Shown here piece by piece: positions 20,706-22,531 of a stretch of 27,864 nt of DNA. Source of the DNA: Methanobacterium sp. (GTDB taxonomy: Archaea; Methanobacteriota; Methanobacteria; Methanobacteriales; Methanobacteriaceae). Each line of letters begins with the position of its first letter. Position 1 is the first letter of the stretch. The stretch is taken from positions 1-27,864 of the forward strand of contig PMWA01000031.1 of the NCBI GenBank assembly GCA_003166335.1, written 5' to 3'. The translations under genes were made by a program, and so were the position numbers. The notes under the pieces are model-generated. The model had not been told where the DNA came from, did not search any database, and saw only the letters and a program-made list of their open reading frames with translations.

Positions 20706-21866
20706 TTAATTCAGTGCACTTATTCTTCTTAAGTTCACTATTATGTCTACTACAGCATCCACCACTCTGTCAACATCTTTCATAGTATTAAATCGACTAA
20801 AAGTAAAACGCACGGATCCATGAGCTCTTTCATGTTCTCCCCCGATCCCCAGTATAACATGACTAGCTTCTAATGTACGGCTAAAACAGGCTGAGCCGGT
20901 GTTCACCGCAAAACCACGCATATCCAGATGAAGAGTGATGGATTCACCTTCTACTCGTTCAAAGGTTATATTAGCATTTTGAGGTATTCGCTTTGTAGGA
21001 TGTCCATTTAAAACAGTTTGAGGTATTTCAGATAGAATTCGCTCCATCAAACGGTCACGCATTTTCTGAAGATATTTGTTTTCATCATCAGTCACCAGTT
21101 GAACTGCCTTCGCAAATCCAACAGCACCCGAAACATTTTCCAACCCTGCACGACGATCAGATTCCTGATATCCACCGTCCATCCATTTCCGTATTTGAGT
21201 ACCTTTGCGAATGAAAAGACCGCCGATGCCATTAGGGCCATGTATGGTATGAGCTGAGAATGAAATCAGATCTACAGGTACTTTCTGCACATCCAGAGGT
21301 ATCCTAGTAAAAGTATGAGTTGCATCAATATGGAAGAGCACATTTTTCTTTTGACAAACTCTTCCAATGGCTTCAATGTCTTGAATGGTACCAATTTCTT
21401 GATTAGCATGTTGCACGGAAACTAAAATAGTTTCATCAGTAATGGTATCTTTGAGTAGGGCGGGATCCACCAGGCCATCACCGTCAACATCTAGATATGT
21501 GACTTTAAAACCTTGCTTCTCTAGTGCTTTAGCTGTGTTAAGAACAGAGAAGTCTTCGATTTTAGATACAATTATGTGATTCCCTTTTCTGATTTTAGCC
21601 ATAGCCACCCCTTTCAAGGCCATATTACTGGATTCTGTAAACCCTGAGGTGAAAATAAATTCAGATGCCGAAGCTCCTAAATGATTTGTTATGATTTCTC
21701 TGCTTTTTTCCAGGGCTTCACGAGCTTCTATACCCATGGAATAACCGGATTCAGATGTGGGAATGGCGTAAATATCAAAAAAGTAGGGTTTCATTTCATC
21801 AAAAACGCGCTCATCCAAACGGGTGATAGATGCATTATCTAAATAAGTGTATTCATTATCAAACAT
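20706..21866 (-). CDS. IscS-like paralogue lacking PLP-binding residues but retaining the persulfide Cys
   Basis: Full-length colinear similarity to iscS (16088-17251), but with SAHT207IHGP, IED105, DATH184 and AGLEN. TGSAC327FS is retained. Confidence 0.9.
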   Translation of the reverse strand: MFDNEYTYLDNASITRLDERVFDEMKPYFFDIYAIPTSESGYSMGIEAREALEKSREIITNHLGASASEFIFTSGFTESSNMALKGVAMAKIRKGNHIIVSKIEDFSVLNTAKALEKQGFKVTYLDVDGDGLVDPALLKDTITDETILVSVQHANQEIGTIQDIEAIGRVCQKKNVLFHIDATHTFTRIPLDVQKVPVDLISFSAHTIHGPNGIGGLFIRKGTQIRKWMDGGYQESDRRAGLENVSGAVGFAKAVQLVTDDENKYLQKMRDRLMERILSEIPQTVLNGHPTKRIPQNANITFERVEGESITLHLDMRGFAVNTGSACFSRTLEASHVILGIGGEHERAHGSVRFTFSRFNTMKDVDRVVDAVVDIIVNLRRISALN

Positions 21867-21874
21867 GATTTCAC

Positions 21875-22294
21875 CTAAATAAAGAGGTTTATCTTGGATT
21901 CACGTGCTTCGTGGATATAAGTTCCTATTGCGCCGTATTCATCTATTAGTTCCTGGCGTAGGTCTTCTTTTTTTATCCCCATGATGTCCATGGTCATTTC
22001 ACAGGCAATGATCTTACCACCTAATTCTTTGTAATCTTGTATGAGTTTTTCTAGGGAAGCTACGTTGGCAGTTTTCATTCGATTATTAATCATACGTTTT
22101 CCCATTCCGCCCATGTTCATTTTGGAGAGGGGACCTTTCTCTAGACCGTCTTTTTTAAGACGTTCTAAGCCCCAGAAAGTGAAAAACAGTGTTGATTCCA
22201 TTCCCATGGAAAGTGCACCGTCACCTATGATTAGAGCACTGTACAATTTATCCATATCTCCGCTATGCACAATTATAGTAGTTTTATCAATCAT
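21875..22294 (-). CDS. DsrE/DsrF/DrsH-like (DsrE2-type) sulfur carrier
   Basis: SGDMDK, LFFTFWGL and IIACEMTMDIMG. AGGTGA RBS favours ATG 22294. Confidence 0.88.
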   Translation of the reverse strand: MIDKTTIIVHSGDMDKLYSALIIGDGALSMGMESTLFFTFWGLERLKKDGLEKGPLSKMNMGGMGKRMINNRMKTANVASLEKLIQDYKELGGKIIACEMTMDIMGIKKEDLRQELIDEYGAIGTYIHEARESKINLFI

Positions 22295-22303
22295 TTTTTT
22301 CAC

Positions 22304-22531
22304 CTATTTTCGGATTTTAATTTTCCATACTCCTTCTTTCTCTTGGATGTCTATTACCTCTAAACCCATATCTTCAGCTGCCATCGGTATCTCTTTTTTG
22401 GAAGCAGGATGATTACCGGTAATTTCCACAATATCTCCTTTTGACGCTTTATTTAATGCTTTCCGGAATTCAACTAACGGTCCTGGACATGTTTGACCAG
22501 TTACATCAACTTTTATTTCTTTTTCAGCCAT
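22304..22531 (-). CDS. tusA: TusA/SirA-family sulfurtransferase
   Basis: 75 aa with DVTGQTCPGP (CPxP) motif. GGTGA RBS. Confidence 0.9.
   Translation of the reverse strand: MAEKEIKVDVTGQTCPGPLVEFRKALNKASKGDIVEITGNHPASKKEIPMAAEDMGLEVIDIQEKEGVWKIKIRK

Follow-up and report, generated by a model that had tools for sequence, protein, structure and literature searches.

Two genes of sulfur-carrier type precede a desulfurase look-alike

We examined a 27,864-nucleotide stretch of DNA from Methanobacterium sp. (assembly GCA_003166335.1, contig PMWA01000031.1; hereafter the window), in which the genes of two putative sulfur carriers precede that of a cysteine desulfurase look-alike, here called iscS*. 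All three genes lie on the minus strand. The first (22304-22531) encodes a TusA-like sulfur carrier of 75 amino acids (Pfam PF01206, E 1.6e-21) with a CPGP motif, whose Cys15 codon is at 22487-22489. The second (21875-22294) encodes a DsrE2-like protein of 139 amino acids (Pfam PF13686, E 8.5e-40) with an ACEMT motif and a Cys98 codon at 22001-22003; its ATG, at 22294, follows the tusA stop codon by 9 nucleotides. Another 8 nucleotides separate the dsrE stop from the ATG of iscS* (20706-21866), a full-length open reading frame of 386 amino acids. A perfect palindrome, TATAACAATTGTTATA (22700-22715), likely an operator, lies 168 nucleotides before tusA and just downstream of a TATA-like element, TTTATAA (22721-22727, minus strand).

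Every gene from tusA through iscU is on the minus strand. An earlier note, made from the letters of this DNA, had described the full-length frame, the short gaps, the perfect palindrome and the one-strand layout, and all were confirmed. The run on one strand is not one operon, however, because metY has its own perfect copy of the palindrome (20529-20544), which is also found before metY in relatives and marks a separate transcription unit. A single operon from tusA to iscU was ruled out by this second operator together with poor synteny. Among contigs assembled from RNA runs, one of 1716 nucleotides spans tusA, dsrE and iscS*, although such contigs are no proof of a single transcript, and contigs from three studies have ends between iscS* and metY, a weak hint of separate units.

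IscS* has lost cofactor-binding residues and retains a conserved cysteine

To compare IscS* with the intact IscS encoded 3.45 kb away, we aligned the two globally (175 identities in 394 columns). The alignment confirmed the losses at the lysine, histidine and glutamine positions that the earlier note had listed, as well as the retention of Cys327. The Schiff-base lysine, Lys200 of the intact protein, is Thr207 in IscS* (codon ACC, 21246-21248, minus strand); the cofactor-stacking His98 is Asp105 (GAC, 21552-21554, minus strand); and Gln177 of the DxxQ motif is His184 (CAT, 21315-21317, minus strand). Gly69 and Thr235 correspond to Phe76 and Leu242. Cys323 is kept as Cys327 (TGT, 20886-20888, minus strand) in the mobile loop TGSACFSR. 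A protein that lacks both the Schiff-base lysine and the stacking histidine cannot carry out pyridoxal phosphate (PLP) chemistry and, judged by its residues, IscS* is not a cysteine desulfurase. Sequence databases annotate the family as cysteine desulfurase, the mislabelling that the earlier note had foreseen, and this label inflates inferred desulfurase counts.

The overall fold appears to be retained. IscS* matches the aminotransferase class V family (PF00266, E 2.3e-71) and scores 432 bits on TIGR03402, under the cut-off of 530.75 bits that the intact IscS passes with 558.6. The predicted structure (mean predicted local distance difference test score, pLDDT, of 86.7) has a type I desulfurase fold, with Z scores of 48.9 to 4EB5 and 50.2 to 3LVL and a root-mean-square deviation of 1.7 over 371 residues; confidence is low at residues 34-43, 230-241 and in the cysteine loop (327-330).

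The substitutions are shared across the family. Asp105, His184 and Cys327 are each present in 120 of the 120 best homologues (70-100% identity), and position 207 is threonine in 118 of them and lysine in none; the possibilities raised earlier, that close relatives might keep the lysine or lack the cysteine, were thus not borne out. All four residues are invariant in 101 of 101 locus copies, again with no lysine. Second IscS copies, by contrast, keep the histidine and the glutamine, along with the lysine and cysteine, in 40 of the 40 cases fetched (one of them with internal stops). Compared with these 40 intact proteins, 18 positions are family-specific and invariant in IscS*, several of them in the former PLP pocket. 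Phe76, which the earlier note had counted among the changes as GFTE, was rejected as a diagnostic residue since the position is variable (Ser in 71 and Phe in 32 of the best 120); the changes at the lysine, histidine and glutamine positions are the family-wide ones.

We determined the spread of the family and its neighbourhoods from the 80 best of 327 confirmed genome stretches, with 8 kb flanks. These come from Methanobacteriaceae, Methanosarcinaceae, Methanotrichaceae, Methanomassiliicoccaceae, Altiarchaeales, Chloroflexota, Bacillota, Nitrospirota and others. A TusA gene neighbours iscS* in 74 of the 80 loci and a DsrE gene in 73, in keeping with the synteny expected at the outset, and IscU is found in 58. 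The wider linkage suggested by the window, to metY-metX-iscS-iscU, ThiI and MOSC, proved to be local: intact IscS is a neighbour in 5 loci, MetY/MetX in 2, MOSC in 1 and ThiI in none. Within Methanobacteriaceae, 40 of 151 sampled genomes carry an orthologue; dsrE adjoins it in all 40, and each of the 20 regions fetched has an unbroken tusA-dsrE-iscS* trio. By these sequence comparisons, IscS* is a conserved pseudo-desulfurase that retains its cysteine and travels with tusA and dsrE.

An alternative is that the gene is a decaying, strain-specific duplicate of iscS. Its distribution is patchy, as the 40 of 151 genomes indicate, and it has been deleted in four relatives of the same genus, one of which has a stop-ridden remnant. 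The ratio of non-synonymous to synonymous substitution rates (dN/dS), which we calculated as the earlier note had advised, is however low, at 0.032-0.116 in twelve pairs and 0.08 between the window's iscS* and its two nearest relatives, indicating purifying selection. The window's protein departs from 5 of 174 conserved columns, where the family median is 4, and the same substitutions occur across many phyla. Four RNA runs, each from a different study, have contigs over the Thr207 codon that list no alternative letter, so the codon is not an assembly error. On the strength of homologue conservation, dN/dS, the RNA-run contigs and a typical number of departures, we rejected both assembly error and decay; the latter is largely refuted and has very little probability left.

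Lysine-less relatives are not confined to this family. Among the best 150 IscS representatives, clustered at 50%, 125 are canonical, 3 have the IscS* signature (one of them full length), 5 bear the lysine with other changes and 17 are otherwise lysine-less. The loop cysteine is kept in all 17 (P0246, P0251, P0257, P0261, P0262, P0303, P0312, P0370 and others), and at least nine different residues occupy the lysine position. Pseudo-IscS proteins may thus represent a broad radiation or a repeated origin. No lysine-bearing sister with Asp105 and His184 was found in the 150 best representatives; P0261 has N-terminal and GSACFS features like those of IscS* and keeps Lys, but has Arg in place of His.

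The drift at the lysine position of those 17 is what would be expected of a dead pocket, and bears on a second alternative, in which IscS* is a re-tooled enzyme whose rebuilt pocket binds a metal or new ligand and makes the Cys327 persulfide from a sulfur compound other than cysteine. The pocket consists of Asp105, Gln152, Gln156, Thr183, His184, Thr207, His209 and Asp230, with Asp181, Asn155 and Arg353 kept. Its new residues are invariant across phyla, with 2 parsimony changes per clade over 13 sites, as the alternative would predict. The invariance could also serve folding without a cofactor, and we regard a re-tooled enzyme as improbable.

IscS* resembles IscS1 of Methanosarcina acetivorans

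The earlier note had called the system undescribed; however, its gene cluster and missing lysine are already in print. The M. acetivorans isc1 cluster comprises MA0810 (SirA-like), MA0809 (DrsE superfamily), MA0808 (IscS1) and MA0807 (IscU1), and its describers noted the missing lysine of IscS1, suggested a role like that in Archaeoglobus fulgidus, found recombinant IscS1 insoluble and reported no test of its function (Deere et al. 2020, PMC7585200). The gene order in the window is the same, with SirA/TusA-like and DsrE genes directly upstream, and a by-eye comparison with Fig. S2 of that study shows that IscS* shares IEDF, DATH, SAHTIHGP, RAGxEN and TGSACFSR with IscS1. By signature and neighbours, then, IscS* is a member of the IscS1 family and the MA0808 orthologue. 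Unlike M. acetivorans, the window's genome has no IscU1 (IscU-DUF59) gene beside iscS*, and none was found elsewhere in it; it also differs in a palindrome specific to Methanobacteriaceae, in Ala for Pro at position 384 and in Ser for Phe at position 40. No functional study of IscS1 or of the MA0807-0810 genes turned up in our literature searches, to which subscription papers were out of reach, and DsrE and TusA go unmentioned in the main text of a proteome paper on M. barkeri (PMC10846266). The cassette is known but unstudied, and what is new here is its persistence without the scaffold gene.

The closest solved structure by sequence is A. fulgidus IscS2 (E 1.2e-100, about 43-44% identity; 4EB5, 4EB7, 4HVK, and 4R5F for the D199K variant), which likewise has a type I fold, has lost the lysine and keeps the cysteine. 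It is reported to have no desulfurase activity, its cysteine instead ligating a [2Fe-2S] cluster on IscU (PMC8918507). The parallel drawn in the earlier note holds as far as a lysine-less, cysteine-keeping analogue goes, but the pocket differs and the protein is not an orthologue: A. fulgidus IscS2 has Asp at the lysine position (SNDI), retains the stacking histidine (EHMS) and binds pyridoxamine phosphate or PLP, whereas IscS* has AHTI and EDFS and its family carries Asp105 and His184. Moreover, both A. fulgidus IscS copies are inactive (bioRxiv 2024.03.20.586028), while the window's genome retains an intact IscS. By analogy, we infer that IscS* may work like the A. fulgidus pseudo-enzyme. 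Type I IscS/NifS proteins (including MisS of the minimal MIS system and E. coli IscS, 3LVJ/3LVL) have in common with IscS* the fold and the cysteine loop, along with the majority of the IscU contacts and some of those to TusA; IscS* differs in its lost PLP residues, in scoring below the TIGR03402 cut-off and in a sulfur flow that would run into the IscS cysteine.

The dedicated scaffold is missing from most Methanobacteriaceae carriers

Outside Methanobacteriaceae, an IscU gene adjoins iscS* in 57 of 61 loci, which ties the IscS* family to IscU. In 54 of these it encodes a full IscU-DUF59 fusion of about 211 amino acids, and in three it is cut short; the other four loci have none. No IscU-DUF59 gene lies beside iscS* in any of 19 Methanobacteriaceae loci. 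Across the 40 carriers of this family, IscU-DUF59 is present in 2, a short IscU alone in 36 and no IscU match in 2 (fragmented assemblies); complete single-contig genomes are among those without the scaffold. In the window's genome, which is 99.4% complete, we found no IscU-DUF59 and one IscU match in all, a short housekeeping IscU (15705-16109, minus strand, above the TIGR03419 cut-off) that would be the partner in trans; a stand-alone DUF59 protein and SufB are also encoded. The earlier note, working from the window, had named IscU among the possible recipients and had missed the usual partner, the fusion lost here. Judged from these genomes, this lineage has lost the dedicated IscU-DUF59 scaffold while tusA-dsrE-iscS* stayed under selection, with dN/dS of 0.045-0.116 for iscS* in seven scaffold-less pairs. 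The 34 scaffold-less IscS* sequences form one clade (support 83 in a quick tree), so they do not represent independent losses. In the DUF59 domain of the fusion itself (L055:9177-9812 and its relatives), HQF stands in place of the CP or CM cysteine motif of stand-alone DUF59 proteins, and the cysteines of the IscU domain are kept.

We asked what became of the surface on which IscU docks. E. coli IscS contacts IscU through helix 309-316, E347 and residues 379-391 (PMC2854127). The IscS* residues that map to these contacts, E306, E308, S309, L312, E346, L379, R380 and S383, do not vary in any of 77 sequences, scaffold-less copies included; at the same sites, only 65 of the 125 ordinary IscS representatives have Glu at the E346 position, and 62 have Ser at that of S309. 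Over the whole contact set, 18 changes followed the loss of the scaffold against 22 expected, no excess, and a general relaxation of the IscU surface was rejected on this basis. Single sites behave differently. Pro384, in the C-terminal SPL motif of the IscU-contact helix, is present in all 54 copies accompanied by IscU-DUF59 but in 17 of the 34 that lack it (parsimony changes 0 versus 6); the window has Ala384 (codon at 20715-20717, minus strand). Further changes were at Arg188 (5 in the scaffold-less clade versus 0), His345 (4 versus 0) and Val35, Phe40 and Ile341 (3 versus 0 each), and segments 340-349 and 323-336 have 15 and 13 changes where about 4 each were expected. These relaxed sites may serve contact with IscU-DUF59 alone, the general docking site for IscU being retained, and Methanobacteriaceae would then point to IscU1-specific surface residues such as Phe40, His345 and Pro384.

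The repeated changes at Pro384, His345 and the two segments could also mean that the Methanobacteriaceae trio works independently of IscU, as a persulfide store or shuttle under sulfur-starvation control that serves thio-cofactor or tRNA enzymes or removes excess sulfane sulfur. The presence of IscU-DUF59 in only 2 of 40 carriers, with complete single-contig genomes among the rest, fits such a role, as does a palindrome held in common with cysK, metY and thiI (the last with two mismatches). The core IscU contacts are nevertheless invariant, the Pro is also missing in 2 of 40 intact IscS proteins with a neighbouring IscU, and no thio-cofactor gene is a conserved neighbour of iscS* in the 80 loci. 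We consider this shuttle rather unlikely.

A candidate sulfur relay through TusA, DsrE and IscS*

Each of the three co-encoded proteins contains a cysteine that is invariant in 77 of 77 sequences, which suggests a relay. The carrier cysteines are conserved within their motifs (CPxP in TusA, AC in DsrE): TusA C15, P16, P18 and R23 and DsrE C98 are invariant in 77 of 77 sequences. The invariant R23, together with Glu at position 50 of IscS* in 71 of 77 sequences, matches the central TusA-IscS salt bridge (PMC2854127). Characterised relays favour transfer from DsrE to TusA (PMC11094781), a direction that, combined with the kept salt bridge, points to the order DsrE, TusA, IscS* Cys327, IscU. An ordinary IscU is proposed as the recipient because this lineage is without the dedicated IscU-DUF59 scaffold, and there is precedent in the lysine-less IscS of A. 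fulgidus, which lends its cysteine as a cluster ligand on IscU (PMC8918507). The fixed residues of the former PLP pocket, the unchanged IscU-docking positions, the absence of IscS* from the 19 family genomes without a type I IscS match and a palindrome held in common with cysK, metY and mrp/apbC also favour this reading.

We tentatively propose, with a confidence that falls a little short of even, that IscS* receives sulfane sulfur from DsrE and TusA and that its Cys327 delivers the sulfur to, or ligates the nascent cluster on, ordinary IscU. DsrE Cys98 would capture sulfane sulfur from a polysulfide or persulfide donor and pass it to TusA Cys15. TusA would then dock on the IscS* dimer as it does on E. 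coli IscS and load Cys327, the reverse of the classical direction, after which Cys327 would swing to IscU. Because the second IscS is intact in 40 of the 40 cases checked, the IscS* unit is an accessory system, and the relay would run alongside the cysteine-fed IscS and SufB without replacing either.

Adjacent tusA and dsrE genes with conserved cysteines are also found in known DsrE/TusA relays (DsrE3A-DsrE2B-TusA of Metallosphaera and sHdr-linked DsrE3/TusA). Unlike those of sulfur oxidisers, the present pair is coupled to an IscS look-alike and has no sulfur-oxidation genes as conserved neighbours, shdr and dsr genes being absent among the neighbour clusters of the 80 loci. The nearest solved DsrE structures are 2QS7 and 3PNX. 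Nearly all of 120 listed longer relatives (of 1510) combine TusA and DsrE domains, mostly in fusions of about 820 amino acids with CoA-disulfide reductase and rhodanese, and the window's DsrE is 44-49% identical to the fused DsrE domains; no DsrE-IscS* fusion was found among these 120, which is weak evidence. Predictions of a complex of two IscS* chains with TusA and with DsrE scored 0.25 and 0.24, short of the mark of 0.32, and speak neither for nor against binding.

Several observations weigh against the proposed relay. In E. coli, iscS2U2 of A. fulgidus failed to complement even when sulfide was supplied (bioRxiv 2024.03.20.586028). The DsrE2B prototype, of the nearest solved DsrE subfamily, was reported to be inert with six sulfur compounds and not to bind TusA (PMC4175335), and W45 and R237, through which E. 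coli IscS contacts TusA, are not kept in IscS*. Pro384, His345, Ile341, Gly342, Val35 and Phe40, fixed with IscU-DUF59, change repeatedly without it, which could mean that IscU binding was lost. Four genomes of the same genus that lack iscS* (L147-L150, one with the remnant, which is short) keep tusA-dsrE with both cysteines and dN/dS of 0.04-0.15; since the pair stayed under selection after the deletion of iscS*, the carriers do not need IscS*. Conversely, IscS* is retained in three Anaerolineae whose IscU-DUF59 gene lies elsewhere and in which no close DsrE was found, just a distant one, so IscS* can persist without that carrier. The carrier and IscS* modules are separable. Three of the four genomes without iscS* have a DsrE that is three residues shorter within a helical insert, and in their TusA the motif is CPGP, as in the window, where the family has CPVP. 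In Chloroflexota and one other bacterium (L005-L007, L040, L052, L070 and L072), iscS* occurs with glutaredoxin and ferredoxin:thioredoxin reductase genes, and in L005-L007 also near genes for a stand-alone DUF59 protein, a ferredoxin and a ferritin-like protein.

A further point against the relay is that the intact IscS present in all 40 cases could still supply sulfur from cysteine. In such a cysteine-fed branch, persulfide from intact IscS would pass through TusA, or an IscS:IscS* heterodimer, to DsrE and IscS*, to be buffered or redirected with no inorganic input. The window's intact IscS (16088-17251, minus strand, in a separate unit) is a possible donor or partner in trans. IscS* is found in none of the 19 family genomes, among the 151, that lack a type I IscS match, although related genomes are not independent and iscS generally occurs together with iscU; tusA-dsrE lies beside metY-metX-iscS-iscU in the four relatives that lost iscS*; and sulfur classically passes from IscS to TusA (PMC2854127). 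An active iscS is, however, adjacent in only 5 of 80 loci, and 9 of 50 other carrier genomes, from incomplete assemblies, have no intact full-length type I IscS match listed. Leu242 of IscS* would replace the threonine that, in IscS structures, completes the PLP phosphate site of the partner subunit, and the N-terminal dimer segment is family-specific; these residues somewhat disfavour the heterodimer. Onward transfer from TusA to DsrE is unfavourable in characterised systems (PMC11094781). Overall we think a cysteine-fed branch unlikely. In some Methanobacterium, a 656-amino-acid IscS fusion with an intact lysine directly follows iscS-iscU (L086:894-2864, L088:966-2936).

The proposed relay from DsrE and TusA to IscS* would speak to an open problem in methanogens, which are rich in Fe-S proteins. 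Strains of M. acetivorans that lack both copies of SufBC, or that lack IscSU2, survive, and the question of an unknown factor has been raised for them (PMC10500019; the survival is also described in PMC13066941); the sulfur source of lysine-less IscS is an open question in a review (PMC8918507). The TusA-DsrE-IscS* cassette is a genetically testable candidate for this factor. Methanobacteriaceae offer natural knock-outs for dissecting it, with the scaffold lost in 38 of 40 carriers and IscS* lost in four relatives that kept the carriers.

A palindrome is shared with sulfur-assimilation genes

The genome has 10 exact copies of the palindrome TATAAC-N4-GTTATA, 7 of them on this contig, and other spacers of 0-10 give 0-3 copies each. 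The copies are at window positions 9564, 20529, 22700, 27292 and 27310, at 32919, 42727, 42755 and 44267 of contig C107 (G000) and at 38701 of C123. Genes that follow them include tusA, metY, mrp/apbC, cysK (twice) and a GMC-thiF-hdr run, which ties the tusA unit to the synthesis of cysteine and homocysteine; downstream of the C123 copy is a gene for a small GTPase-like protein of 166 amino acids. Weaker copies lie before thiI (two mismatches) and a second cysK. Of 38 Methanobacteriaceae loci (some duplicates), 14 have a perfect palindrome in the 400 nucleotides before tusA, as does none of 53 other loci. At tusA and cysK it is 4-9 nucleotides downstream of TATA-like elements, the place of a repressor. 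The tusA-dsrE-iscS* unit of Methanobacteriaceae is therefore likely part of a sulfur-assimilation regulon, and the operator, of which we found no description in print, could lead to a methanogen sulfur regulator. A more far-reaching proposal starts from a re-tooled IscS that works without a cofactor: its rebuilt pocket, together with Cys327, would collect sulfane sulfur from inorganic polysulfide and hand it to any IscU, under the control of a new repressor that responds to sulfur starvation in Methanobacteriaceae. TusA-DsrE-IscS* would then amount to a fourth sulfur route to Fe-S clusters, and could be the missing one that keeps M. acetivorans growing on sulfide after the loss of SufBC or IscSU2; we doubt that this combination will prove correct.

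The contig as a whole is a sulfur island (window 7048-20320 and L141:1-20000), with genes for cystathionine lyase, thiI, thi4, MOSC, pdxS, iscSU and metXY, two cysK-cysE pairs, cysS, ThiF and ThiS-like genes, hdrCBA and mrp/apbC. MetX (17409-18893) has two C-terminal CBS domains. The cysK that starts at 27365 (27365-27864) is split into two overlapping frames of 172 and 145 amino acids and is about 112 nucleotides shorter than its counterpart in an intact cysK-cysE copy of 94% identity, which lies 17 kb farther on in the contig (L141:366-1239). Directly upstream of tusA, a gene for a copper-type P-ATPase is present in several Methanobacteriaceae (window 23101-25542; L001, L002, L089, L094, L096 and L097).

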